Part shown: positions 1-20,028 of the stretch, in pieces
How positions within the stretch are numbered: the first letter of the stretch is position 1
Layout: each line of letters starts with the position of its first letter
From: Patescibacteria group bacterium UBA4473
GTDB taxonomy: Bacteria > Patescibacteriota > Gracilibacteria > UBA4473
Direction: 5' to 3'
Assembly (NCBI GenBank): GCA_002389285.1
Contig: DGOF01000029.1
Location: 1 to 63,426, forward strand
Length of the DNA stretch: 63,426 bases
Made by a program: the position numbers and the translations under genes
Notes under the pieces: model-generated
What the model saw: the letters and a program-made list of their open reading frames with translations, nothing else
What the model was told of the DNA's origin: nothing
Database searches by the model: none

Positions 1-1490
1 AGGAAAAATAAACAGAGCAGTGGTACTAAGAAGAGTGAGGCGACCAGTGCGCCCAGCATCGCAAAGATATTCGTGAAGGCGAGGGGATGGAAGAGCTTTC
101 CTTCCATGCCTTCAAGCGCAAAGATTGGCACGAAAGAGAGGGCGATAATGAAGATGGCGAAAACCAGTGGTGCGGCAACTTCTTTGGTTGATTCTAAAAT
201 AACTAAAAAGCGTTGCTGAAAGGTCTTGGGGTTTTGTGCTTTTAATAAATGCTGATAAGCATTTTCTGTCACGACGATGGCACTATCAACCATGGTTCCG
301 ATGGCGATGGCGATCCCGCCAAGACTCATGATGTTGGAAGGAATGCCTAAAGTATACATAGCTAAAAACGTCATCAAAACACCAAAGATTAACGCGATAG
401 CCGTGATAATAGTCGCGCCACCATGGAGTAAAAAGGCCCAGAGGACCAGGCCGGTAATCATCAACATCTGTAGCAAAACATTGCGGAGGGTACGAATTGC
501 GTTTTGGATCAGTTCGGTTCGATCGTAAAAAGGTTGAATAGTAATGCCTTCGGGGAGGCTTTTTTCTATGTCACTGATTTTATTTTTTACCTGCCCAATG
601 ACTTCGAGAGGATTTTCGCCATAACGCATGACGACGATACCGCCGACTTTTTCGGATTCACTATCAGCGAGTATGCCGCGTCGAAAAGTACTTCCCGTAC
701 GAACTATTCCAACATCTTGGATTGTCAGGGGGACGCCGTCGGCACGATGGCCTAAGACAAGGGAGGTCATTTCTTCGGGGGATTCAAAAAATCCCAAGCC
801 TTGGATCGCGATTTCGCGCTCACCGTGTTCGAGGACTTTGCCGGAGACATTGTTATTGGCGTCTTGAATGGTTTTTATGACGTGGGGGAGACTGACATCG
901 TATTGTTCAAGTTTGACCGGATCGAGGACCACTTGGTAGGTTTTGAGATAACCGCCGACCGAGGCGATTTCGGCTACGCCGGAGAGACTTTGTAAATTAT
1001 ATCTGACCGTAAAATCTTGTAATGATCGTAGTTGGGTGAGGGAGTGTGTTTTACTCTCAAGGGTATACATAAAAATATGCCCGACGCCGGTGGCATCCGG
1101 CCCTAGCAGAGGCGTTACGCCGGAAGGAAGTTGATTGGCAATAACACTCAGTCTTTCACTTACCCGATCCCGGGCAAAATAAATGTCAGTTTTATCTTCA
1201 AAAATAACGGTTACGAGGGAGGTCCCGAGCATGGAGCTGCTGCGAACGGCTTTGACCTGGGGGAGTCCCTGCATGCTCACCGTGAGGGGATAGGTGACCT
1301 GATCTTCAATGTTTTGGGGAGACTGTCCGGCCCATCGGGTCATGACGATGACTTGGTTTTCCGAAAGATCGGGGATCGCATCAACGGGCGTTTTCATGAG
1401 CGAAAGACTTCCCATTAAGATCAAAATCACAAATATAATGCTCGTAAGAAATCTGTTTTCCAGGGCGAAAGTGATAAGTTTATTGATCAT
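1..1490 (-). CDS. Heavy-metal efflux RND transporter, CusA/CzcA family. Partial: the N-terminal ~496 aa are present and the C-terminus lies off the window.
   Basis: Minus-strand ORF with ATG at 1490-1488, open to the window edge. It is absent from the ORF track because its stop is off-window. My translation starts MINKLITFALENRFLTSIIFVILILMGSLSLMKTPVDAIPDLSENQVIVMTRWAGQSPQNIEDQVTYPLT and continues through GGIAIAIGTMVDSAIVVTENAY and ALEGMEGKLFHPLAFT, typical of the CusA/CzcA N-terminal half. The start overlaps the stop of the adaptor gene by 11 nt (1480-1490). Confidence 0.9.
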   Translation of the reverse strand, partial: MINKLITFALENRFLTSIIFVILILMGSLSLMKTPVDAIPDLSENQVIVMTRWAGQSPQNIEDQVTYPLTVSMQGLPQVKAVRSSSMLGTSLVTVIFEDKTDIYFARDRVSERLSVIANQLPSGVTPLLGPDATGVGHIFMYTLESKTHSLTQLRSLQDFTVRYNLQSLSGVAEIASVGGYLKTYQVVLDPVKLEQYDVSLPHVIKTIQDANNNVSGKVLEHGEREIAIQGLGFFESPEEMTSLVLGHRADGVPLTIQDVGIVRTGSTFRRGILADSESEKVGGIVVMRYGENPLEVIGQVKNKISDIEKSLPEGITIQPFYDRTELIQNAIRTLRNVLLQMLMITGLVLWAFLLHGGATIITAIALIFGVLMTFLAMYTLGIPSNIMSLGGIAIAIGTMVDSAIVVTENAYQHLLKAQNPKTFQQRFLVILESTKEVAAPLVFAIFIIALSFVPIFALEGMEGKLFHPLAFTNIFAMLGALVASLFLVPLLCLFF

Positions 1491-3117
1491 TTTCTGTTTC
1501 TTGAGGTGCTAGAAAAGGTTTGCTTTCTCGAAAAAATCGAGAAGAGGCGGTCTGGATAATATTCAGATCTTTTGTGAGAAGTTCGGATTTTACATCGCTG
1601 TACTCACCGTCTTCGGCGAGGACTTGTACGATGAGGTGGGCTAACGATTCATCTTCCTGAATGATCCAGAGATAAAAGTCAGACCCTTTGCGCTTGAGGG
1701 CGGTGGAAGGAACGGACCACACGGGGTTTTCTTGATCTAACAAATGTACATAGATGCTCGTGTTGTGTGACCAGTCTTGAGGGGTATCTAACACGGCCTG
1801 TGCTTGTGCGGTGCGAGACATCGCATCAAAAGAAGCGCCGATACTGGTGATCTGGGCCGGGAATTTTTTATTATCTTGGGGAAGACTGATGAGAATCTCA
1901 TCAGTAATTTTTATTTTTTTCATCCAGGATTCTGGCACACCGAAGTGAATTTCTTGTGGGTTTTCTTGGCCGAGGGTGGTGTGTACGTTTTCAACGGCAA
2001 AGAGGGCTTTGGAGGGATGAACGTTGTGTCCGATCTCGGCGAAGCGTCGCACGATTACGCCATCGAAAGGCGCGGTAACGCGTACGTGTCCGCTTTGGGC
2101 CAGAACATTTTGATAGGCTTCTTGAGCCACTTGGACTCGGTTTTGGGCATCAGAGATGCTTTTTTGTGACTGAGAAGATGTCAGGTCAAGGCCTTTAGTG
2201 GCCTGCTTGACGGAAACCGACAATTGATCGGCCCTGAGAAGAGTCTTTTCCAGTCGATCGAGCGCAGCCAAAACATTTTGTCTGTTTTTCTGAAGCGCTA
2301 AGTGATTCTGTGAATTTTCAGAAGCGCTTTGGTAGAGTTCTTCGGCAAGAGAAAGTAAGATTTCGAGTGATCGTATTTGGATTTGCACTGACGCTTGATC
2401 TAATCGGTTCTGCCGAGCAGATTTATACTGATTAAAAATTTTGTTTTCCAAGAGGCTGTTGTTGAAGTTGCCTTTCAGCGCCGATGCATTTTGGATCGTG
2501 CCGGTATCGCCGTATAAAATTTTCTTCGTGTTCTGAAAAGCCGCATCTGAAATCGACTGTGCATGATCGAGATCTTGCTGGAGTTGGCTTCGTTCGTTCA
2601 AGCTTCCGCCCTCGATTGTTGTGTCGAGTTGGGTTTGGGCCTGAAGGAGTTTTTTCTCTGATACAGAGATAGATTCACTGGCCACTCCGCGCGTATTGGC
2701 CAAGTTTTGTTCCGCCGCGATGAGCTGGGCTTTGGCTTTTGCGATTTGGCTTGAGCTTTGGCCGGCGACTCCCTGCGGGAAGAGAAAGGCAAGCGTTTGT
2801 CCGATTTGAATCTCATCCCCGACATCGACCAAAATATCCTTGAGCAGTCCTTCTCGCCGCGGATGAATCATAGCGAACTGATTGGAATGAACCTGTCCGA
2901 TGAGTTTAATACTCGAGAAAGATTCAGAAATTTGAGGATTTATAGATTTGTGAATTTTCGCATTGGTGGATTTTGAAACTTTTGAATGTGTGGGCGTGGG
3001 TGTTTGAGTCTTTGTGAAGATGAAAACAAAAATCACAAGGATTATTATTCCCGCATAAATTCCCCATTCCCATAATTTTATGGGCCTTTTCCAAAAAGCC
3101 TTGAATATGTTTTTCAT
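1480..3117 (-). CDS. Efflux RND periplasmic adaptor (membrane fusion protein, HlyD/CusB-like)
   Basis: 545 aa with an N-terminal TM helix, then a lipoyl-like hairpin (MIHPRREGLLKDILVDVGDEIQIGQTLAFL), a long coiled-coil middle, and a beta-barrel segment (VTAPFDGVIVRRFAEIGHNV). It is translationally coupled to the RND pump gene. Confidence 0.8.
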   Translation of the reverse strand: MKNIFKAFWKRPIKLWEWGIYAGIIILVIFVFIFTKTQTPTPTHSKVSKSTNAKIHKSINPQISESFSSIKLIGQVHSNQFAMIHPRREGLLKDILVDVGDEIQIGQTLAFLFPQGVAGQSSSQIAKAKAQLIAAEQNLANTRGVASESISVSEKKLLQAQTQLDTTIEGGSLNERSQLQQDLDHAQSISDAAFQNTKKILYGDTGTIQNASALKGNFNNSLLENKIFNQYKSARQNRLDQASVQIQIRSLEILLSLAEELYQSASENSQNHLALQKNRQNVLAALDRLEKTLLRADQLSVSVKQATKGLDLTSSQSQKSISDAQNRVQVAQEAYQNVLAQSGHVRVTAPFDGVIVRRFAEIGHNVHPSKALFAVENVHTTLGQENPQEIHFGVPESWMKKIKITDEILISLPQDNKKFPAQITSIGASFDAMSRTAQAQAVLDTPQDWSHNTSIYVHLLDQENPVWSVPSTALKRKGSDFYLWIIQEDESLAHLIVQVLAEDGEYSDVKSELLTKDLNIIQTASSRFFRESKPFLAPQETENDQ

Positions 3118-3145: not shown

Positions 3146-3382
3146 TTAGTGACCGTGTGATTCCATATCCATATCCATTTCGTGTTCATGCATGTTGTCC
3201 ATGTCCCCCAGATGATCTTCGATCGACATGTTCATGCGAGCAGCGGCTTCTTTTTGTTCTTGGAATTCTTCCATAGAAAGTCCATAAGAAGCGGCCATGT
3301 CAGCTTCGGTCATAGGTTTTTGACCACAAGCGGTGAGAAGAAAAGCGAAGGCGAAGATGAAAACGATTGATAATTTTTGCAT
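3146..3382 (-). CDS. Small Met/His-rich lipoprotein, putative periplasmic metal (Cu/Ag) binding protein
   Basis: 78 aa with a lipobox (LLTAC). The C-terminus MNMSIEDHLGDMDNMHEHEMDMDMESHGH is rich in Met/His/Asp. It lies directly upstream of the adaptor/pump genes on the same strand. Confidence 0.6.
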   Translation of the reverse strand: MQKLSIVFIFAFAFLLTACGQKPMTEADMAASYGLSMEEFQEQKEAAARMNMSIEDHLGDMDNMHEHEMDMDMESHGH

Positions 3383-3440: not shown

Positions 3441-3788
3441 CTAGAGCAAAAGCTGGATTGTCTTGGTAATGATCGCTGGAGGATCTGGGCTGGAAAAAAC
3501 CAGCATCAAGGATTTTGGTGTAAAGATCGGTGCGGCGATGAAATCAGGAATCGTGTAGCTTGTTTGGAGAACAATCTCTGGGGAATCGCTTTCTAAAACA
3601 GTGGTCTCACTCCAGGCTTCTGCGGCTTCTAAGCAGGCGTCGCAGTTTGCTTCTTCTTGTTCGGGAGCTTGTTCCTGATGACAGGGAGGTAGTTCGGTCG
3701 CCTCAACGGTCATGCCTCCCATGAAGCTAAAGCAACTCAGGAGGAAGAGTTTGGAGAAGAGAAGGGAGAGCGAGGAGATTCGGTTCAT
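3441..3788 (-). CDS. Hypothetical secreted protein (signal peptide, Cys-containing acidic segment)
   Basis: 115-aa ORF with a hydrophobic N-terminus (LSLLFSKLFLLSCFSFMGG) followed by CHQEQAPEQEEANCDAC. No family recognised. It sits between the ncRNA array and the efflux operon. Confidence 0.5.
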   Translation of the reverse strand: MNRISSLSLLFSKLFLLSCFSFMGGMTVEATELPPCHQEQAPEQEEANCDACLEAAEAWSETTVLESDSPEIVLQTSYTIPDFIAAPIFTPKSLMLVFSSPDPPAIITKTIQLLL

Positions 3789-3829
3789 GGATACACGCGG
3801 ATTGTAGCAGGGAAGCGGATGTGCGTAAA

Positions 3830-4047
3830 GAGAGAGACCGCCTTTTTTAGGGGCGGTCTCGTCCTGTTTCGGTACGGGGCAGGCTCACAGGCGTATAGTC
3901 TGTGAGCATGTGGTTGGTCAGTGTGATTAACCGACGAAGGAGGTCGCACTGAACCGAACACGCTGTCCGTTACTTTTCCCCGATAATACTCGTTCCATCG
4001 GAAGAGTCCGGGAGAGATGAAGCTAAAAGCTTCGAAGCAAACAGGTT
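3830..4047 (-). ncRNA. Structured ncRNA, copy 1 (subfamily A), unknown family
   Basis: Minus-strand promoter: TTGACA (4081-4076), N16, TAAATT (4059-4054). Predicted 5' end ~4047. Hairpin 1 is GAAGCU/AGCUUC (4019-4033). Hairpin 2 is UUCC-GAU-GGAA (3989-4006). The closing helix pairs CCUGUUU (4045-4039) with AAACAGG (3869-3863). The terminal hairpin at 3834-3860 has a 9-bp stem but only a weak U-tract, so this is the least terminator-like of the four copies. Confidence 0.7.
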
Positions 4048-4097
4048 GATACTAATTTAGTATTTACTGCGTATTTGTCAAATCTTTTTAGGATTTA

Positions 4098-4320
4098 AAA
4101 CAAAGATAAGAGGGCCGCCTTTGTGGGGCGACCCAGACCTATTTCGGTTTATCTAATGTTAGTGAGGGTGATTCCTCGCTAACATATGTCCAGATACAGT
4201 GAGGACAGGCCCGGAGGGCCCACTGGAGCAGGATGAACTTTCTTGATTTTCCCCGATATACTCGTTCCATCGGAAGAGCCCGGGAGAAAGAAGCCAGAGG
4301 CTTCAAAAGCAAATAGGTTG
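4098..4320 (-). ncRNA. Structured ncRNA, copy 2 (subfamily A), unknown family
   Basis: Promoter: TTGACA (4354-4349), N16, TTAAAG (4332-4327). Hairpin 1 is GAAGCC/GGCUUC (4290-4304). Hairpin 2 is at 4261-4278. The closing helix pairs CCUAUUU (4317-4311) with AAAUAGG (4144-4138). The terminator is GGGUCGCC-loop-GGCGGCCC (4134-4112) followed by UCUUAUCUUUGUUUU. Confidence 0.75.
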
Positions 4321-4361
4321 ACGCTACTTTAACTGTTTTTGTCGATTGTGTCAATTTTTGT

Positions 4362-4589
4362 ACAAGGAAAAACGGCCGCTTTGTGGGCGGCCTGGGTTTG
4401 TTTCGTGTGCTATATGGATTACGGATCATGATTGAATGTAGATCCATTCGGACGAGGTCCGTCTCCTGACGAAGTCAGAATAGAGAACCGGGCCTTGTCC
4501 GAAGCAGCGGCTTATTTCTTCTCGGACTCATTCCATCGGAAGAGCCATGCGAGAAAGAGGGGTTCTGAAAGAACCAAGCAAACAAACTT
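4362..4589 (-). ncRNA. Structured ncRNA, copy 3 (subfamily B), unknown family
   Basis: Promoter: TTGACA (4623-4618), N16, TAACTT (4601-4596). Hairpin 1 is GGUUCU/AGAACC (4561-4575). Hairpin 2 is at 4527-4544. The closing helix pairs GUUUGUUU (4587-4580) with AAACAAAC (4403-4396). The terminator is GGCCGCC-CACAAA-GCGGCC followed by GUUUUUCC (4392-4365). Confidence 0.75.
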
Positions 4590-4635
4590 GTTTCTAAGTT
4601 ACTCATTTTTCACAATATGTCAATGCTTCTTGCTT

Positions 4636-4855
4636 CTTTAAAAAACAGGACCGCTTTGAGGGCGGCCCGGGTTTGTTTCGCGTGCTTTCTCAGTCAGGTT
4701 TTATGGTGAAAACCGGAGTGAGGATATAAATGGGAACCTTTAGACGAAGTCAGGTTCACATTTCATCAGCATCTATCTGATCTCTTCTCTGACTGATTTC
4801 ATCGAAATAGTCATGGGAGAAAGAGGGGTTCTAAAAGAACTCAGCAAACAAACTT
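4636..4855 (-). ncRNA. Structured ncRNA, copy 4 (subfamily B), unknown family
   Basis: Promoter: TTGACA (4889-4884), N16, TAAGTT (4867-4862). It begins 17 nt after the stop of the vWA gene. Hairpin 1 is GUUCU/AGAAC (4828-4840). Hairpin 2 is the variant UUUC-GAU-GAAA (4793-4810). The closing helix pairs GUUUGUUU (4853-4846) with AAACAAAC (4678-4671). The terminator is GGGCCGCC-CUCAAA-GCGGUCC followed by UGUUUUUU (4668-4638). Confidence 0.75.
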
Positions 4856-4905
4856 AAGCCTAACTTAGTTGTTATCTTAATTTTGTCAAGTCTTCTTCGT
4901 TTTGG

Positions 4906-6903
4906 CTATGATTTTGACGAGAAGGCGTCGATATTTTCTTCTAAAAACGTGATGGTTTTATCGACGGCCTCCCCTACGCGGTGGCTGGCAGCGGCGTGCA
5001 TACGGGTTCGGCAATGGGGACGAAAATGAGACTCATACATTTCAATCACGGCTTGTGCACAGGGGGCGACACCATTCACCATGAAATAAATCCCTAAGGG
5101 ATCTTCTTGGATTTGATTCAAAACGGTATCTTCGGGAAGTGTGTCATATCCATCACTGAGGATAGATATGAATTTTAAGGCATTGGGATCGTGTAATTTC
5201 ATTCGTGAGTATCCATATTTTAAGGATGCTTCACTATTGGTTCCTCCAGGATTTTGCATTTCGAGGATTATTTGGTAAAATCCTTGGACGAGCGTTTTGA
5301 GGGTGGGGGCGTCATCGAGGGGGACCACAAGTTTTATGCCACTGTGAAACAATATGACTTCTGTTTGAACCGGGCTTTCCATGCCGCGGGGAAGTTTGTA
5401 TCGTCCGGATTTGTTTCGAAGTTCTTCGGCAATATTGAGCGCGGATTGCATGAAAGCCGTGTAATATCCGAGGGTTTCATTCAGTTGGTCGCCCATACTT
5501 CCGGATACATCAATTATTTTTTGAATCTGGAGGATTTTGGGGGTGAGAAAGTTTCGTTGATTGACATATACGGGGGCATCAAATTCGCCCATCCGTCCTC
5601 GGGTCCAGGCTTCGGCTTCGCGGCCGGGTTCCACCATGGATCCGGATCGTTGTCTTCGAACGGGCATTTTTCGGTATTCTTGTTGAATAAAACGAGTGAA
5701 GACTTCGGTGAGACGTGTGATTTGCGGAGAAAATATGTCACAGGTTTGAAGATATTGGCGATAGATTTCGGGGGGTATTTCGAGTTGCTCGGCCATTTCT
5801 TGAATGTGAGAATCCAATATTTTTCCGCTCATTTTACCACTCCCATCAGCGTCTGTTCCCAGGAGATCATCGATTCTCTTGGCCGCTTCTTGAAGGTTTG
5901 CTTCGACGACCTGCTTTCCTTCTTTTGTTCCTGGTTTTACGGTTGTTGATTGTTGAGTCACCACTTCAATTTGTCGGTTGTGTTGTGCGATTTGTTCGAT
6001 GATTTCTTTGAGTTTGGCTCGCGGATCGTCTGCTTTGGAACATTGTTCATCGATATCCTCTTGAAGGAGTCGACCGAGGTCCTGCATGCCTTCAAAAAAG
6101 ACCATGCATTTTTCATGCACGGAGGAGGTGGTACTTCTGAGGGATCGGAAGTAATGTTCCATGGTTGGAACTTCGTTTACAACTTTCGGAGGAAGGGTGT
6201 TGGTCTCTGGCATTCCAAAAAAAGGTGCCGTGAGAAAGAGGTTTTGAAAGGCTATGTGATCCATGGCTCCTTCAAATTCGTTGTCTTTCCAGACAAATTC
6301 TTGGGTTTCTTTAAATTCCTGAGCACGTTTTTGTCCGGCCTCTCTTTCTTCCGGGCTGACACAACCCATTTCTTTTGAAAAGATCGTTCCTCGATTTAAA
6401 AGAAAACACTGTCGCAAAAGATCTTGGGTGGTGACATTTTCGGCATGAGGGGCGATGGTTTCAAGGATCACGTCCGCACAAGTATTAATGAACCCGCGCG
6501 CCATTTGTTCTTTGGTTTGTTGGGGAAGTTCTGCAGGAAGTTGGCTTATGGTTGCGGGAATCAGGGCTTCACATTGATCTTGAAATTGGAGCAGTTCTGG
6601 TAAATGGTGACCGAATTCATGCGCAAAACAGGCCATTTTTTCATCGATGGGAAGGGTGAAAATCGTGTAGGGATTGTAGAAAATGATCTGTTGTTTGATC
6701 AAGGTCGCATATCCAGGGTTGTCAGGCGTGGCTTCTGGGTCAGGTTGTAAAGGGAATCTCCTCGCATTGGGAATGAGTTGCTCGAGAATCTGTAAAAAGG
6801 CCTCCCCATTATCCCCATCTTCAGAAAAGGCTTCTGCAAGAGTGGTCGGAAGAGGACGTTCTATGTCCACTTGAGTCGGTAAGAGGTCTTCGTTTGGTGG
6901 CAT
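4906..6903 (-). CDS. HExxH metallopeptidase-like N-terminal domain fused to a C-terminal von Willebrand factor A (vWA) domain with an intact MIDAS motif
   Basis: 665 aa. CFAHEFGHHLPE carries the HExxH motif (codons at 6621-6607). The vWA domain has IIDVSGSMG (DxSxS at 5511-5497), then GGTNSEASL and ISILSDGYDT. The gene starts 11 nt after the AAA+ gene stop. The architecture resembles the metallopeptidase+VWA partners of MoxR-type ATPases, as far as I recall. Confidence 0.8.
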   Translation of the reverse strand: MPPNEDLLPTQVDIERPLPTTLAEAFSEDGDNGEAFLQILEQLIPNARRFPLQPDPEATPDNPGYATLIKQQIIFYNPYTIFTLPIDEKMACFAHEFGHHLPELLQFQDQCEALIPATISQLPAELPQQTKEQMARGFINTCADVILETIAPHAENVTTQDLLRQCFLLNRGTIFSKEMGCVSPEEREAGQKRAQEFKETQEFVWKDNEFEGAMDHIAFQNLFLTAPFFGMPETNTLPPKVVNEVPTMEHYFRSLRSTTSSVHEKCMVFFEGMQDLGRLLQEDIDEQCSKADDPRAKLKEIIEQIAQHNRQIEVVTQQSTTVKPGTKEGKQVVEANLQEAAKRIDDLLGTDADGSGKMSGKILDSHIQEMAEQLEIPPEIYRQYLQTCDIFSPQITRLTEVFTRFIQQEYRKMPVRRQRSGSMVEPGREAEAWTRGRMGEFDAPVYVNQRNFLTPKILQIQKIIDVSGSMGDQLNETLGYYTAFMQSALNIAEELRNKSGRYKLPRGMESPVQTEVILFHSGIKLVVPLDDAPTLKTLVQGFYQIILEMQNPGGTNSEASLKYGYSRMKLHDPNALKFISILSDGYDTLPEDTVLNQIQEDPLGIYFMVNGVAPCAQAVIEMYESHFRPHCRTRMHAAASHRVGEAVDKTITFLEENIDAFSSKS

Positions 6904-6914
6904 GAATATTTCTT

Positions 6915-9900
6915 TTAAGACCGGTAGGTTGGAAGCGTTGGAAGATCGACGGGAATTTTTCGCATCATGTGTTCCACGATGACCTGCATATTGCTTTCTT
7001 GGATCTCGGAGATCATTTGTATGGCTTCTATGTAGGGAAGGGTTATCTTCATAGGTTTATCGGGATGGATACCTCGTTGTGCCATGAAGGTTTTGACCTG
7101 TCCTGCAATTTCCATAAGACGGTCCAAAGGAATGACTTTGAGATCGTAGAGTTCTTTCGCTTCTTTGAAGATGGTGAGAATCGGAAGAAACTGTGATTCA
7201 AAGATCGTAAAGTCTTTCATGACGGCTTGTGCTCTTTTGGATATGGCTTTGATCGGAGGGTTGAAGGCGGCTTCTCTTCTTTTTTCAAAGTCTTCTTTCC
7301 AGTCGTCTTGGTGCTTCATAATGACCCCGGTGGGCTCGTCTGCGTCTTCTCTGGTAATGAGTTCTTTGAAATCAGGACATTGATGGATGAGGCTTATGAT
7401 TTCTGGGTACTTTCGGAGTGGACGCATATGGCTTTGAATAGCTTTTCGAATGGGCTCGGCTTCTTCTGGGGTTATAACAAAGAGCGCTTGCATATCGGTC
7501 CAGTGACGAAGGACCTGCTGGACCGTGTTTTTTCGAATTTTTGTTTTACTTCTGGTTTTCGCTGCTTTTGATTCGCTCCCGTTTTCCGTTTCCTTGATGT
7601 TTTGGGTCGCTTCGTCGAGTGTTTGGACGAGATATTCGAGGCTTGGGTTTTTAAAGGCTTTTTCGTCTTGAAAAGAATCGCGTGAGATGAATTTTTTCTC
7701 TACGCCAAGGGCAAAGAGAGAAGCGTTACGGAGGAACGTCACGGGATTATCTTTGGTGTTTTCGATTTGTGCTTTAAGAAATTCTGTGAGGGATTTGGAG
7801 GCTTTTTCCGAGAGTGTTCCAACGGAGAGTGAATCGTCTTTCGTTCCAAAGTTTGCTTGAAGGAGCTCGGTCCAATTTTCCGTAGCGATGAGTTCTTGTT
7901 GATACTCGTTTATGGATTTCATAACGAGCGGATTCAGTCCCATTTTTCCGAGTTCGGCCATGTGATCAACATGATGCGCGTACTTTTGGGCCTCTTCTCC
8001 ATGGACGGGACAGTGTTTGACGCCACAAACGGGACATCGGTGTTGATAGTTTTTTTTGCTCTCACTGTAGTCGTGCGGTTTGAAGGATACTTGATCGGCG
8101 CGTGCGGAATCGATGAGTTCGCTTAATCGAGCGGATCCAAGATTGGAAATCATGCCTTCAATTTCTTTTTTATAGCCGTTGAGGAATCCACTTCCGATGA
8201 GAAGAGGAATGATAGTTCGAAGACTGTCGGTATATCCGAGGGCGAAGGCATCTCGTACGTAGTGTGCCATAAGCGCTTCGTCGATATTACACGGATGATG
8301 ATTGGTTTGAGGATTGATCGATTTACAAATTTCAATCAAGACCCGATTTGAGAAGGGGAGAAATTCATTTCTTCCTCCGTATTCTCGTGTCAGTGTGGCT
8401 TTTAGTTTGGGGATCAGTGTTTGAACGAGGAAGTGCATTTGGTAGGCACTTTCATCGTCAATCGTTCCGGCGTTGTCAGTGAGTGCAAAATGTCCGGTCA
8501 TGGGGTCACAAAGATGAGCCCAGGCAAGGGATCGAGTCATTTCTTCTGGGGGGAGTCCTTGGAAATCAAGCGATCCTCCCATGGCTAATCGGCTGGCCAT
8601 GGCGGGATTGGCCGCAATAGAGGTTCCGTGTTCGGATCCGACATTTCCCGTAAAGGTGATACAAAACTTATCTCCGACGCGCATCCATTCAGAGGTGATG
8701 GTATTGAAAAACCATCCAATAGGATTTTTTTGAGTTTTTCCCTCTTCTTGTTTTCGTGTTTCAGGGCGCGGTCCGGCGGTTTCGTCATCGGCTGGAATAC
8801 AGTGCAATAAGGAGTGCAAAAAGGTCCAGTTATCGAGTTCCGGGAACTCGTTGATGATAATGGGCGTGTTCTTGATGAGTCCTTGAAGGATATTTCCGTA
8901 GGCAAATCCTCGTTGGGTGGTTTGGCTTTTAAGCACGGTGAGGAGATGGGAGGTCAGATCTTTTTGAGCGGATTTTTTGAGCAGGGCGCGGAGTTCTTCA
9001 ATACTGGCCCCTCCTTCGGAAAGAGTTTGTTCTGTGAGTTCGAAATGTTTTTCAAAAAAATCAGGATCTTGTGCTACGAGTATTTCTATTTGGGGTTTGT
9101 CTAGCTGATCGATCATGCTGGTATGGGCCATGGCTTGTTCCGCCATGGTTTGATCTCCGATCGTGGGTCGGGCCATAAGTGTAAAGGACGATTGTCCGGG
9201 ATCGATATCGATCGAAATGGGTTCGATACCATGCATTCGAAAATATTCTTGGAGGAGGCTGGTTTTTCCTTCTCCGGGAGGGCCGGTCAGCGTGGGGCCT
9301 ACGACGTGTCTTCGATCGGCTCCGTAAATACGGCCGTGAAGATTATTGAGATGTTGGATAACGGTTTCACTTTCATGAATCGATCGGTGGTTTTGTGCAT
9401 CGCCAATACATTTCATATGTTCTTGTCGTTGGTGGGCCATGCGTACGCTTTCATCCTGCCATACGGAATAGAGGCGTTCTTTGAGTCCGGTTTCTTGTTC
9501 GAGAAGTCCACCATCGGTTCGTTGAACTTGATTGAGAAATTGAGCCCCTCCTGGCATCGAACTTCCTATTTCTGTTTGCAAATATTGCTTGAGAATACGA
9601 CGTTGTTCCGCTTGGTCTTGTTGGTTTTGGAGGAGGTTTTCTTGGAGGGCATTGAAATTTGCAAGAGTCGCTGGACAGTATCCTGTCGTGAGATTCTCAT
9701 CGGGTTGATGTGCGAAGCTATAGATTCTTTCGGCTTGATGCGATATTTGATCGCCATAGGCCGTTACAGTGGTACGGATATCGTCTTCGATTCGTACTTG
9801 TGTTGCGTCCATGAGCTCTCTTTGACCGGCAAAGGCTGGCATCTCTCGGAGTGGGTTACTGGCCGCGTGCGTGAGCATCTGAGCGTTTGTCGTGAGCATT

Positions 9901-10112
9901 CTCACGATAAAATCAGCTTGATCATCTGGAAGTTCTTCGGGGACAGCGGGATTCGTGAGAAGTGTTTGGCTTACACGATCTGAAAAACAATCCGCCAGAT
10001 CATGGAGGTAGGCGAGCGGGTCTTTGTGGAGTTTTTCTTGTGCGGCTTGAAGACCTTCTGGCGTTTTGAAATCGATAGCTTTAGTCGTCATAAGATGAAT
10101 ATTATTTACCAT
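6915..10112 (-). CDS. Large AAA+ ATPase, MoxR/AAA_5 (CbbQ/NorQ-like) core, with long N- and C-terminal helical extensions and a CxxC..CxxH zinc knuckle
   Basis: 1065 aa. Walker A is GPTLTGPPGEGKTSLL (GPPGEGKT at 9284-9261). The Walker B-like segment GNILQGLIKNTPIIINEFPELD is at 8864-8847. ITFTGNVGSEHG...NPAMASRL looks like the sensor-1/Arg region. CPVCGVKHCPVHGEE forms the zinc knuckle. The gene starts 6 nt after the RT stop. Confidence 0.75.
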   Translation of the reverse strand: MVNNIHLMTTKAIDFKTPEGLQAAQEKLHKDPLAYLHDLADCFSDRVSQTLLTNPAVPEELPDDQADFIVRMLTTNAQMLTHAASNPLREMPAFAGQRELMDATQVRIEDDIRTTVTAYGDQISHQAERIYSFAHQPDENLTTGYCPATLANFNALQENLLQNQQDQAEQRRILKQYLQTEIGSSMPGGAQFLNQVQRTDGGLLEQETGLKERLYSVWQDESVRMAHQRQEHMKCIGDAQNHRSIHESETVIQHLNNLHGRIYGADRRHVVGPTLTGPPGEGKTSLLQEYFRMHGIEPISIDIDPGQSSFTLMARPTIGDQTMAEQAMAHTSMIDQLDKPQIEILVAQDPDFFEKHFELTEQTLSEGGASIEELRALLKKSAQKDLTSHLLTVLKSQTTQRGFAYGNILQGLIKNTPIIINEFPELDNWTFLHSLLHCIPADDETAGPRPETRKQEEGKTQKNPIGWFFNTITSEWMRVGDKFCITFTGNVGSEHGTSIAANPAMASRLAMGGSLDFQGLPPEEMTRSLAWAHLCDPMTGHFALTDNAGTIDDESAYQMHFLVQTLIPKLKATLTREYGGRNEFLPFSNRVLIEICKSINPQTNHHPCNIDEALMAHYVRDAFALGYTDSLRTIIPLLIGSGFLNGYKKEIEGMISNLGSARLSELIDSARADQVSFKPHDYSESKKNYQHRCPVCGVKHCPVHGEEAQKYAHHVDHMAELGKMGLNPLVMKSINEYQQELIATENWTELLQANFGTKDDSLSVGTLSEKASKSLTEFLKAQIENTKDNPVTFLRNASLFALGVEKKFISRDSFQDEKAFKNPSLEYLVQTLDEATQNIKETENGSESKAAKTRSKTKIRKNTVQQVLRHWTDMQALFVITPEEAEPIRKAIQSHMRPLRKYPEIISLIHQCPDFKELITREDADEPTGVIMKHQDDWKEDFEKRREAAFNPPIKAISKRAQAVMKDFTIFESQFLPILTIFKEAKELYDLKVIPLDRLMEIAGQVKTFMAQRGIHPDKPMKITLPYIEAIQMISEIQESNMQVIVEHMMRKIPVDLPTLPTYRS

Positions 10113-10118
10113 AAAAGA

Positions 10119-11906
10119 TTATTTTTTCTCCTTAAAACCAGGAAGATTGATGAAATTACTTTTTTTGTCTTTTGTATGTTTTTGTTTTTTGGGGACGGGA
10201 GCAAGGACTTTGGTGACTTCTTTTTCTGCATCCCAGAACAAATAACGCGTTCCACGGAGGATGGCATAAAGACTCGTGTCACCTCGTTCTTCCGCTTGAC
10301 CTTTTATGGCTTCACAAAGTCGTTCCCAGGCTTCTCGATTAAGTTTGAGGGTCAGGAGTGATTCTCCTTGGGCATCAGACTCATCTTCATTTTCTATAAC
10401 ATCTTCCTTGTTGAAAACCGTGAGTTCTACAAACGCAATGAGTTGGTAGAGGCTTGTTTCAAACAGGGCTCGTATTTCTTCTTCGGAAAGATCGTCATTA
10501 TCTTCGATCGATTCGGCGATGTTTGCGATTTGATCCGAGAGTTCAAATTCTACAAGAGTTTCATCTTTGTTAATGGTCTCTTCCATTTCGAGGAGAGAGG
10601 ATTTGGCTTCGTCGATTTTTGCGGTGAGTTCTTCGGGGGTGATATTTCGTTTTTCACAGAGCGTTGCTTGACGTTTTTGGGTGAAGACTTCTTTATCGGC
10701 ATCAACATAGTCGACCTGTTCTTGCATTTTCATTGCCTGGTTTGAAAACCATCCAGAAGCACTGGCGGGGAGGATGTCTCCGAATTTCTCCAAAAATTGT
10801 CGCCAGGCATGCGCCATGCGATCAGGAAGGACATAGAGGTCATCTTTGATCGTATCGCCTCCTATACGGGCAATGTGATGGGCGTGAGCGAATTTTCCAA
10901 GAATAGATGCGACTTCTTTGTGTTCTAAGAATTCGGCTTGTGTTGTCGGTAGAGCGTCTCCACGAAGATTATTATGATCGATGAGTGCATGCATTTGAGA
11001 AGCCCAGGTTTTGGCGCGGGAATGTGGAATACGAAATCGTAATTTTTTGTCGCTTTTTTTATCGGCGGGGAGGAGATCTACGCCCCAAATTCGATACTTT
11101 TTGTCGTTTTCTTTGTAGTGGGTTTTGTGCGGTGCGGCTTGAAATCCAAAAGATTTGAGGATACTTATGACGAGATGTCGGAATTCTTCGGGGATGTGTT
11201 CACTTCCCAAGATCATAATATCATCGGCATAGCGTCCGTAGGTGAGGTTTCCATCTATTCCCGCTTCTTTAGCTTTTTTTTGAATGATCCGATCAAAGGA
11301 GCTGCTGGCGACCATGTTCGAAAGGGTCGGGGAAGAGGGTGCTCCTTGGGGGAGGCGTTCTTCGAGACAGCAGAGCTCGGTGATGAGTTCGGCGAGTTCT
11401 TGGACGAGTTCGGTCGTGAGTTTGGGGCCTTTGTTCCAATTGTGAAGTATGCGATAGAGAAAATGATAGACTTCTTCTTGTACTTGATCTCGATTTACAC
11501 TGGGAAAAAAGTCGGTGATGTCGGTTTCAAAACAGGCATCCACGTTTTGATCTCGTTCTTCAAAGGTATCTATCATACTTCGAAGTCCGGTGTAGGCGGA
11601 TTGTCCGGCGCGAAATCCAAAAGAGGCCTCACTGAGGGTTGCTTTTCGAAGTAGGTCTTGGATGCGTCGTTGAACAAATTTAAGCGCCTCACTGGGGGCT
11701 TCAATGGTTCGTGTTTTTCCGGGTCCTTTGGGAATTTCAAATATTCGATAGTTTTTTCCTGAATCTCCCTGGTTGTTTTCAAGGGCTTGTACGACCAAAG
11801 GGGCGATGCTTGGAATACCATCGTTTCTAAACGTTGCTTTGTCGAGGGCCTCAAGGGCTTGTTGTGACGGAACACCAATGGATTGTTGTGATGATTTTCG
11901 AGGCAT
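10119..11906 (-). CDS. Stand-alone reverse transcriptase (retron/Abi/UG-like catalytic core) with a ~300-aa acidic helical C-terminal extension
   Basis: 595 aa. RT motifs: FEIPKGPGKTRTIEAP (RT1), FGFRAGQSAYTG (RT3), ETDITDFFPSVN (RT4/A), LPQGAPSSPTLSNMV (RT5/B), YGRYADDIMILG (RT-C; YADD at 11231-11220), HKTHYKEN...YRIWGVDL (RT6/7). I see no maturase, endonuclease or DGR-type motifs. Confidence 0.85.
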   Translation of the reverse strand: MPRKSSQQSIGVPSQQALEALDKATFRNDGIPSIAPLVVQALENNQGDSGKNYRIFEIPKGPGKTRTIEAPSEALKFVQRRIQDLLRKATLSEASFGFRAGQSAYTGLRSMIDTFEERDQNVDACFETDITDFFPSVNRDQVQEEVYHFLYRILHNWNKGPKLTTELVQELAELITELCCLEERLPQGAPSSPTLSNMVASSSFDRIIQKKAKEAGIDGNLTYGRYADDIMILGSEHIPEEFRHLVISILKSFGFQAAPHKTHYKENDKKYRIWGVDLLPADKKSDKKLRFRIPHSRAKTWASQMHALIDHNNLRGDALPTTQAEFLEHKEVASILGKFAHAHHIARIGGDTIKDDLYVLPDRMAHAWRQFLEKFGDILPASASGWFSNQAMKMQEQVDYVDADKEVFTQKRQATLCEKRNITPEELTAKIDEAKSSLLEMEETINKDETLVEFELSDQIANIAESIEDNDDLSEEEIRALFETSLYQLIAFVELTVFNKEDVIENEDESDAQGESLLTLKLNREAWERLCEAIKGQAEERGDTSLYAILRGTRYLFWDAEKEVTKVLAPVPKKQKHTKDKKSNFINLPGFKEKK

Positions 11907-11989
11907 TATTATTATCGGAAAAAATTAAAAATTACATCTTTTTTATACGTATTTACAAAAAAGTCAAGAGATTCTTAAGAATTAAAATA

Positions 11990-19572: not shown

Positions 19573-20028
19573 TTACGATTTTGTTACAAGTTTGCCCTCT
19601 TGAGGGTTCCCTCCGATTTTGATCGGGGGGTTATTTTTTGTAATGAACTGAATAAATTGTTTTTGCAGATTTTTAAAATCATGGATTTTCATCTGTCCAA
19701 GTTTGTGATGAAGTCTTTTTGCGTCGATATATCTAATTTGGGAAAGATATACATATTGAAACTTATTTTGGTATTTGAATTTGAAATAATAATTCCCTGA
19801 TTTTTGTTTTGAGGTAAGTGGGAGAATGATACAGGCATCATCAAATACTTTTCTGAAAATAATGGCAGGTCTTAAGAAATCATCTCCTTTTCCATAGATT
19901 TCGCTTGCGATGTTTTGTCCAAACTGGACCCACCAAATTTCTCGATCAGAAAAATAAGGACCGGGGCCTTTTTTATGAATGCGTTGTTTATCTTTGTTCC
20001 AAATATTGAAGAGTGTTTCAATGTTCAT
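19573..20028 (-). CDS. PemK/MazF-like toxin family protein (long ~150-aa form)
   Basis: 151 aa. REIWWVQFGQNIASEIYGKGDDFLRPAIIF...ILPLTSKQK...YLSQIRYIDAKRL resembles the MazF/PemK fold signature. Confidence 0.55.
   Translation of the reverse strand: MNIETLFNIWNKDKQRIHKKGPGPYFSDREIWWVQFGQNIASEIYGKGDDFLRPAIIFRKVFDDACIILPLTSKQKSGNYYFKFKYQNKFQYVYLSQIRYIDAKRLHHKLGQMKIHDFKNLQKQFIQFITKNNPPIKIGGNPQEGKLVTKS

Follow-up and report, generated by a model that had tools for sequence, protein, structure and literature searches.

An array of structured RNA genes beside a retron-like reverse transcriptase operon in a Patescibacteria genome

A stretch of 63,426 nucleotides from Patescibacteria group bacterium UBA4473 (contig DGOF01000029.1; hereafter the window, whose coordinates are used unless another locus is named) was analyzed for an array of RNA genes and the reverse transcriptase (RT) operon that adjoins it. 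All four units of the array and the three genes of the operon lie on the minus strand. The units are arranged head-to-tail at 3830–4895, with ca. 265 bp apiece. The operon encodes a retron-like RT of 595 amino acids (10119–11906; Pfam RVT_1, 1e-22), a P-loop/AAA-type NTPase of 1065 amino acids recognized by its motifs and by weak Pfam matches (6915–10112), and a protein of 665 amino acids in which motifs and Pfam matches mark an HExxH sequence and a vWA domain (4906–6903). The 83-bp gap upstream of the RT gene holds only a promoter-like site, read by eye, from which the three genes could be transcribed (TTGACT, 16 nt, TAAAAA; 11940–11967). The evidence presented here indicates that the units are, with little doubt, partner non-coding RNAs (ncRNAs) of the adjacent retron-like RT system.

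A preliminary description, made from the letters of this DNA, had proposed four structured ncRNA genes, every one of them equipped with a promoter and a terminator, and this was borne out by direct reading of the sequence, a terminator scan and RNA folds. The TTGACA boxes at −35 were read where they had been placed, and the −10 boxes follow at a spacing of 16 nt. Unit 4, the first to be transcribed (4641–4889), comprises a −35 box (4889–4884), a −10 box TAAGTT (4867–4862), a repeat named a2 (4853–4846), a candidate priming G (4845), a conserved 5′ domain (4845–4780), a variable hairpin region (4779–4682), a CG/AA junction, a second repeat named a1 (4678–4671) and a terminator with a T-run (4668–4648). 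Unit 3 (4368–4623) has the same parts, with the −35 box at 4623–4618, the −10 box TAACTT at 4601–4596, a2 at 4587–4580, the candidate G at 4579, the 5′ domain extending to 4514, the variable region at 4513–4407, a1 at 4403–4396 and a terminator with a T-run at 4392–4374. Unit 2 (4105–4354) carries its −35 box at 4354–4349 and its −10 box at 4332–4326, where TTAAAG at 16-nt spacing has an alternative, TAAAGT, at 17-nt spacing; a2 (4318–4311), the candidate G (4310), the 5′ domain (to 4246), the variable region (4245–4148), a1 (4144–4137) and a terminator (4134–4112) follow. In unit 1 (3830–4081) the corresponding positions are 4081–4076 for the −35 box, 4059–4054 for the −10 box TAAATT, 4045–4039 for a2, 4038 for the candidate G, 4033–4019 for the first hairpin, 3973 for the end of the 5′ domain, 3972–3873 for the variable region and 3869–3863 for a1. 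For units 1 and 2, the promoter was also listed by a consensus scan. The terminator scan, which found 9 sites versus 2.2 expected, returned the hairpins with T-runs of units 4, 3 and 2; the terminal hairpin of unit 1 is a GC-rich stem of 9 bp (GAGACCGCC/GGCGGUCUC, 3860–3834) followed by CUCUCUUU, the weak U-tract that had been ascribed to it. Transcript starts, predicted by eye at about 7 nt from each −10 box, fall 1–5 nt before a2, and the intrinsic terminator begins 2–5 nt past a1 in each window unit.

As had been stated for the region as a whole, coding content is not credible, in that no open reading frame (ORF) is common to the four copies. Overlapping the array are a 102-residue ORF on the minus strand (4139–4447), which crosses a terminator and a promoter, and a few shorter ORFs. 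In four assemblies made independently from the strain of the window, gene callers placed no gene in the corresponding gap of 1.18 kb, and the ORFs of the window read through in the standard genetic code. This strain was recovered at 99.95–100% identity over 12–20 kb from several metagenomes (SRR7617341 in Logan, ERZ23491069 and ERZ807172 in ENA, and JGI 3300009508; loci L021–L024). Its assembly from independent metagenomes indicates that the organism is recurrent, and sequencing reads from which expression or coverage could be assessed are available. Across the array the other same-strain assemblies are 100% identical and so carry no information on polymorphism.

The minimum free energy (MFE) fold of every copy contains both hairpins previously outlined, the first with the paired strands GAAGCU/AGCUUC, GAAGCC/GGCUUC, GGUUCU/AGAACC or GUUCU/AGAAC, and the second with UUCC-GAU-GGAA in three copies and UUUC-GAU-GAAA in one. 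The second hairpin with its GAU loop, here named P3 (3988–4006 in unit 1; 4260–4278, 4526–4544 and 4792–4810 in the others), is nested within a stem P2 in all MFE folds. Its 19-nt motif occurs four times in the window, each time inside a unit, versus 0.1 occurrences expected, and MFE z-scores of whole units ranged from −3.5 to −5.5. A further helix, absent from the preliminary description, closes the MFE fold of all units: the first 7–8 nt of the predicted transcript (a2) pair with the 7–8 nt just before the terminator (a1) in every window unit. The paired strands read CCUGUUU/AAACAGG, ACCUAUUU/AAAUAGGU and GUUUGUUU/AAACAAAC, the last of them in two units, and the differences among the window copies are compensatory.

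The RT–NTPase–vWA operon recurs in about ten loci from metagenomes or from the Candidate Phyla Radiation (CPR), designated L001–L010, with RT identities of 33–41% and with the three-gene operon conserved where contigs extend far enough. Species-level genomes carrying this RT all belong to the CPR (Peribacteria, Peregrinibacteria and Gracilibacteria), and a further scan of metagenomes gave no additional close relatives. In 8/8 relatives with an available upstream flank, the RT gene is immediately preceded by homologous units in the same orientation, numbering three in L001, at least two in L002, four in L004, one in L005, one plus remnants in L006, six in L007, four in L009 and two in L010. This is the usual position of a retron ncRNA, and the arrays mark the RNAs as conserved partners of the RT. 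The preliminary description had noted the RT operon as an odd neighbour of the array; the adjacency stands, but that account was incomplete, having overlooked both the conserved partnership and the terminal stem.

The window has its array on the downstream side of the operon (3826–4905), unlike the relatives (L001, 8850–9930; L004, 4100–5240; L007, 7474–8895). Compared with these loci, the module order of the window looks like a circular permutation, which could reflect a rearrangement or a mobile or circular intermediate. Provision of each unit with its own promoter and terminator, true of the window, is not universal either: in L009 (Peregrinibacteria, 7898–8770) the units form pairs, at 7931 + 8134 and 8401 + 8594, with one promoter-like site and one terminator per pair. 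The functional unit is thus the module from a2 to a1 and not the transcription unit. The second of these pairs directly abuts, and the variable region of the last unit is only 38 nt long. In L007 the third of the six units holds an N-run, a scaffold gap, at 7988–8185; near-identical scaffolds probably confound assembly, so that unit counts in metagenome-assembled genomes may be underestimates. In L006, remnants of older units lie upstream of the intact one (1560–1750), including a 3′ end with its terminator (ca. 1600–1665) and a promoter with a truncated 5′ end that has lost the GCU junction (TTGGTTCTTG; ca. 1694–1745). These remnants suggest turnover of the array.

Comparison of the 25 units available from the window and the relatives defined a common architecture. 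From 5′ to 3′ a unit consists of a2, an invariant GCU, hairpin P1 (accompanied by P1b in the relatives), P2 of the CCUC/GAGG type enclosing P3, an A-rich tail, the variable region with usually two stable hairpins (range 1–4), an invariant CG, AA with the rest of a1, and the terminator; the short hairpins of the 5′ domain number two in window units and three in relatives. Across these units the terminal stem is 7–14 bp long. Its inner end shows an invariant UU/GCU on the 5′ side and CG/AA on the 3′ side in all 25, the latter preceded by A in 22/25, and a G stands immediately 3′ of a2 in 25/25. At positions 3–8 of this stem 102/104 cells are paired, through 19 distinct a2/a1 combinations and with several pair types per position, as against 71 ± 3.4 pairs (maximum 90) in a control with shuffled partners. 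For P2 and P3, 98.5% of the cells are paired in the 21 units of the relatives and 9/10 pairs show double changes, slid controls giving 40–66%; RNAalifold independently predicted the same helices. Covariation had been claimed before from the four paralogues, a weak ground by themselves, and the claim became strong once the 21 homologous units from eight other loci were added.

The exact motif of the window units, TTYCGATGRAA, was not found in the relatives; homology was therefore shown through architecture and a covariance model (CM). Because MAFFT misaligned window units with relatives in P2/P3, the CM was built from relatives only. It recovered a unit of L007 left out of training, and in an unfiltered scan of the entire window it ranked units 4 (4853–4780, 18.7 bits, E = 0.001) and 3 (4587–4514, E = 0.005) first and second, both in exact register. 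The weak scores of window units are attributable to the missing P1b and to different spacers around P3. The absence of a recognizable RNA family, also noted earlier, agrees with Rfam 15, which gave no match at gathering thresholds in the window, only tRNAs at that level in the eight related loci, and only noise at E ≤ 10 in the window and in the arrays of the relatives. The units define a structured-RNA family new to Rfam.

Identity within the units is distributed very unevenly. The division of window copies into subfamilies 1/2 and 3/4 proposed at first sight is reflected in the 5′ domains, which are 83–85% identical within these pairs and 59–65% across them, whereas the variable regions of the same pairs are 47–50% identical. 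In L007, units 2 and 4 share 100% of the 5′ domain and 52% of the variable region; the corresponding values are 97 and 50% in L010, and 96 and 64% for units 2 and 3 of L001, a mosaic with one hairpin in common. With one partner shuffled, the baseline of identity is 47 ± 6%; the variable regions, at 50–58%, lie at this level and resemble one another no more than shuffled sequences do. The boundaries between scaffold and insert are sharp, with the caveat that unit 3 of L007 holds the assembly gap. Despite differing in sequence, the variable regions, of ca. 100 nt, are structured: folded alone, all 25 have z < −2 (mean −4.5), and in window units they form two unit-specific hairpins. The pattern is one of conserved RNA on the 5′ side and of free sequence under a hairpin constraint on the 3′ side, matching the msr/msd division of retron RNAs. 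Identical flanks beside unrelated inserts point away from uniform divergence and imply either replacement of segments or concerted evolution.

In the L001 mosaic, one variable hairpin is 94% identical between units 2 and 3 (9392–9441 and 9757–9806), the remainder of the region being different, indicating exchange at the level of a single hairpin. In the window, a CUGACUUCGUC motif occupies the tip of the first variable hairpin in units 4 and 3 (4682–4779 and 4407–4513), and a shorter CUUCGUC is found in unit 1 (3873–3972); the motif may be a leftover of common ancestry or a functional loop. No match was found for the array by blastn against phage genomes, nor for four exact 20–22-mers from the inserts in IMG/VR, an exact-match test that is insensitive, and no copies of the inserts were found elsewhere in the window or in the related loci. 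Acquisition of inserts in the manner of spacers is unsupported, no source having appeared in any of these places.

The RT gene product has a polymerase domain at approximately residues 45–345, with the motif YADD, and a C-terminal extension of ca. 250 residues ending in a conserved LPGF. Its best PADLOC matches were all retron RTs, headed by RT_III-A (8.8e-41), and its top PDB matches were the RTs of retrons Ec86, Kva2, Ec67, Ec83 and Ec78. The NCBIfam model retron_St85_RT scored 133.7 bits (family cut-off, 235 bits); Drt2 and Drt3a scored 34 and 31 bits, and group II intron RTs were also weaker than retron RTs. Seven full-length relatives, at 33–41% identity, were found in an index of 5.8 billion proteins. 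They belong to a separate and small clade, whose representatives at the 50% identity level number ca. 15–22 among 1.84 billion proteins, past which scores fall into a continuum of ordinary retron RTs. Invariant motifs of the clade are unlike those of canonical retron RTs, namely a GLRxM insertion, WGV in RT7 and the C-terminal LxGF. A sister clade (L011, L025–L027) has no C-terminal extension, and its loci gave no CM matches and no detectable arrays.

Among eight homologues of the NTPase, GPPGxGKT (277–284), a Walker-B-like NEFPE (421–425) and a zinc-cluster motif formed by C693, C696, C701 and H704 are invariant. Its Pfam matches are weak, though consistent, and comprise AAA_16 (8/8 members), AAA_22 (6/8), AAA (5/8) and AAA_5 (2/8). 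The protein is probably an effector or a regulator. The 665-residue protein carries an N-terminal HEFGHH (residues 95–100) and a C-terminal vWA domain with the residues of a metal-ion-dependent adhesion site (MIDAS), DxSGS at 465–469, T555 and D584, all invariant in four homologues; VWA_2 and VWA of Pfam matched 4/4 members of the family, at best with 1e-4. PDB profile searches with both proteins returned nothing significant, a homologue search with the vWA protein returned no matches, PADLOC gave no matches to accessory proteins, and Foldseek searches of the PDB gave noise only. Directly downstream of the array on the minus strand lie an ORF of 115 residues with a hydrophobic N-terminus (3441–3788), one of 78 residues with a weak lipoprotein (LptM-like) match (3146–3382), an HlyD/CzcB-type membrane-fusion gene (1480–3117) and then an RND transporter gene, which look like housekeeping efflux and not defence. 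A gene for a PemK-family toxin is located ca. 8 kb upstream of the RT operon (ca. 19573–20028; L021, 879–1334).

Retron ncRNAs are recognized by 5′ and 3′ ends that pair with each other, by an msr with one to three short hairpins and a conserved G at which branching occurs, and by a structured msd that is copied to multicopy single-stranded DNA (msDNA) attached to that G (PMC7736814; PMC8632793). At the level of sequence the units display paired ends, a G beside a2, as a candidate priming or branch site, and short 5′ hairpins. The locus is best read as a retron-like defence system with several natural ncRNAs and inferred synthesis of msDNA. That the units are partner RNAs of the RT, in one form or another, is very probable; that they are full msr–msd RNAs of the retron type, reverse-transcribed, is the narrower claim and is favoured on balance. 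If so, the RT would bind the conserved scaffold, prime from the invariant G that directly follows a2 (4845, 4579, 4310 and 4038 in units 4 to 1) and copy the variable region to single-stranded DNA, beginning with the invariant CG that directly precedes a1, and the four units would give rise to four distinct msDNA-like species of ca. 100 nt each. By analogy with characterized retrons, the RT–nucleic acid complexes might restrain the NTPase and the HExxH–vWA protein, or act as sensors for them, and interference of a phage with the complexes would release an abortive-infection response. For couples of an ATPase and a vWA protein, a function as thresholding switches has been proposed in conflict systems (PMC7159879). 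Service of several units by one enzyme seems feasible, since engineered tandem msr–msd arrays with different msds are processed by one retron RT (PMC10370050). The combination of constant scaffolds with unrelated inserts suggests a repertoire of different msDNAs and not extra dosage. A more far-reaching version, which we regard as less likely than not, is that of a natural "multitron" in which one RT would serve an array of ncRNA genes made of a constant scaffold with exchangeable, hypervariable hairpin cassettes, each msDNA acting as a sensor or decoy for a different phage factor and recombination driving the turnover of the cassettes. Replacement of cassettes is preferred here over drift by point mutation because the boundaries are sharp, beside flanks of 100% identity in L007 and 97% in L010, and because of the mosaic in L001.

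Several observations weigh against this interpretation. The RT scored under every retron family cut-off, and 0/13 retron types of PADLOC were matched at member level. The NAxxH motif of region X, between RT2 and RT3 (PMC7736814), is not present in the clade, which has no conserved H there and shows a conserved GRSAYxGLRxM instead; likewise, the clade's IWGV aligns with VTGL of Ec86, keeping G and neither V nor T. The several hairpins of the variable region take the place of the one long stem of a canonical msd. The window array is placed downstream of the operon instead of upstream of the RT gene, and window units 1 and 2 gave no significant match to the relatives-only CM. Models of the accessory proteins from AlphaFold2 were poor, with a predicted local distance difference test (pLDDT) score of 36 for the vWA protein, modelled from a single sequence, and of 54 for the NTPase, modelled from five; as structure prediction failed, the domains of these putative effectors were called from motifs and sub-threshold profile matches. 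Finally, msDNA, branching and even the transcription of the units are predictions from the DNA sequence. Owing to these departures in the RT, the variable region, the ncRNA genes and the accessory proteins, the system is labelled retron-like and is not assigned to an existing type.

Some of these features would also suit RNAs that serve the RT without being of the retron type, as template or scaffold for unbranched complementary DNA, in the way of DRT2, DRT9 and DRT3. Synthesis primed by a protein is a further variant, and in such schemes the terminal stem would only mark the boundaries of the template. An RT without NAxxH or a strict VTG and below the retron cut-offs, its large and unique C-terminal extension, and several variable hairpins where a canonical msd stem is expected fit such a scheme. 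We nevertheless hold it to be rather unlikely: the RT scored 134 bits with retron RTs versus 34 and 31 bits with Drt2 and Drt3a, termini that pair and an invariant G where a2 ends are retron hallmarks, and the unit-specific inserts share neither a conserved template nor an ORF for a common product. A diversity-generating retroelement (DGR) was rejected as a reading, since inserts that cannot be aligned offer no A-specific pattern to examine.

Another role, independent of reverse transcription, would be that of a scaffold, antitoxin or decoy regulating the NTPase and the vWA protein directly, in the manner of Y RNA and Ro60 or of ToxI. In Y RNAs, too, the 5′ and 3′ ends close the molecule, and several copies lie beside the gene of a vWA-domain protein, a likeness to which the window adds an array that abuts the vWA gene. 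In eight relatives, however, the array abuts the RT gene and not the vWA gene; the vWA protein has no TROVE domain at E ≤ 1, no Y_RNA match was obtained in Rfam, and such a role would leave the RT with no function, so that we judge it distinctly improbable. A Ro60/Y-RNA module was rejected for the missing TROVE domain, and fragments of a group II intron for the lack of any Rfam intron match. That the region lacks a functional RNA array and consists instead of degenerate repeats, small coding genes or the ends of mobile elements is most unlikely. The 102-residue ORF and the shorter ones that overlap the units are in favour of coding genes, but that ORF spans a terminator and a promoter, and small-protein genes were rejected for want of an ORF common to the copies. 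Against all of these variants, four helices are kept by compensatory changes, the linkage to the RT operon persists at ca. 35% protein identity, and no gene was called in the gap in four assemblies.

Retron-type partner RNAs of the RT, as favoured here, would, if confirmed, change the picture of retrons, so far described as one RT, one ncRNA and an effector. Up to six ncRNA genes beside one RT operon, sharing a scaffold and carrying unrelated structured inserts, would represent a new route to diversified specificity in RT-based immunity, and the AAA-type NTPase with the HExxH–vWA protein would add a previously undescribed pair of effectors. Retron-like defence would be extended to CPR/Patescibacteria, whose genomes are small and whose defence systems are comparatively few. 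Multiplex genome editing already employs engineered retron arrays, of which the present arrays would be the natural equivalent, built on a compact scaffold evidently tolerant of arbitrary inserts of ca. 100 nt. Within a limited coverage of the literature, no such ncRNA array was found described for natural retrons; RT-linked arrays may have been described earlier. A preprint of September 2026 on mining of ncRNAs with a genome language model contains "ncRNA array" ten times and "reverse transcriptase" 14 times; vWA, AAA+, msDNA and Patescibacteria do not occur in it.

Among known systems, CRISPR arrays and the type III ToxI repeats resemble the present array in their tandem RNA units with a constant part, joined in CRISPR to a unit-specific part. 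By contrast, the units described here are complete structured RNAs of ca. 265 bp, with self-complementary inserts for which no match to viral contigs was detected, and no cas or toxN-like gene is present. The pairing of an ATPase gene with a vWA (MIDAS) gene recalls the MoxR AAA+/vWA couples of conflict systems, proposed to act as a thresholding chaperone and co-chaperone (Kaur et al. 2020, PMC7159879). The NTPase of the window gives only weak, generic AAA matches and is at most a candidate member of the MoxR clade; the link to RTs in PMC7159879 concerns DGRs, and no third component of the VMAP or iSTAND kind is found here. With the defence RTs of the UG/DRT group (DRT2, DRT3 and DRT9) the system shares the dependence of a defence-type RT on a neighbouring structured ncRNA, but RT similarity is much weaker and those systems have a single ncRNA. 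We know of no junction combining a2/a1 pairing with a G in UG/DRT systems.

Retrons (Retron-Eco1/Ec86; 13 types, Mestre et al. 2020, PMC7736814) share the following: the RT has its best matches among their RTs, an ncRNA adjoins the RT operon, a2/a1 pairing is accompanied by a conserved G at the a2 boundary, two or three short 5′ hairpins precede a variable structured 3′ region, and accessory effector genes make a multi-part system. The differences are that one to six ncRNA genes occur per locus instead of one; that window units each have a promoter and a terminator instead of a transcript shared with the RT; that two or three variable hairpins replace one long stem; that the RT lacks NAxxH, has IWG for VTG and carries the extension of ca. 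250 residues; that an AAA-type NTPase with an HExxH–vWA protein is not among the described types, "vWA" and "AAA" not occurring in PMC7736814; and that the relatives found are CPR bacteria or unassigned metagenome contigs only. In its layout the array resembles the engineered multitron arrays (PMC10370050), in which tandem msr–msd units with a common scaffold and different msd inserts are likewise served by one RT. Those arrays are synthetic, based on Retron-Eco1 and made for genome editing, whereas the array described here, with its hairpin inserts, is natural.

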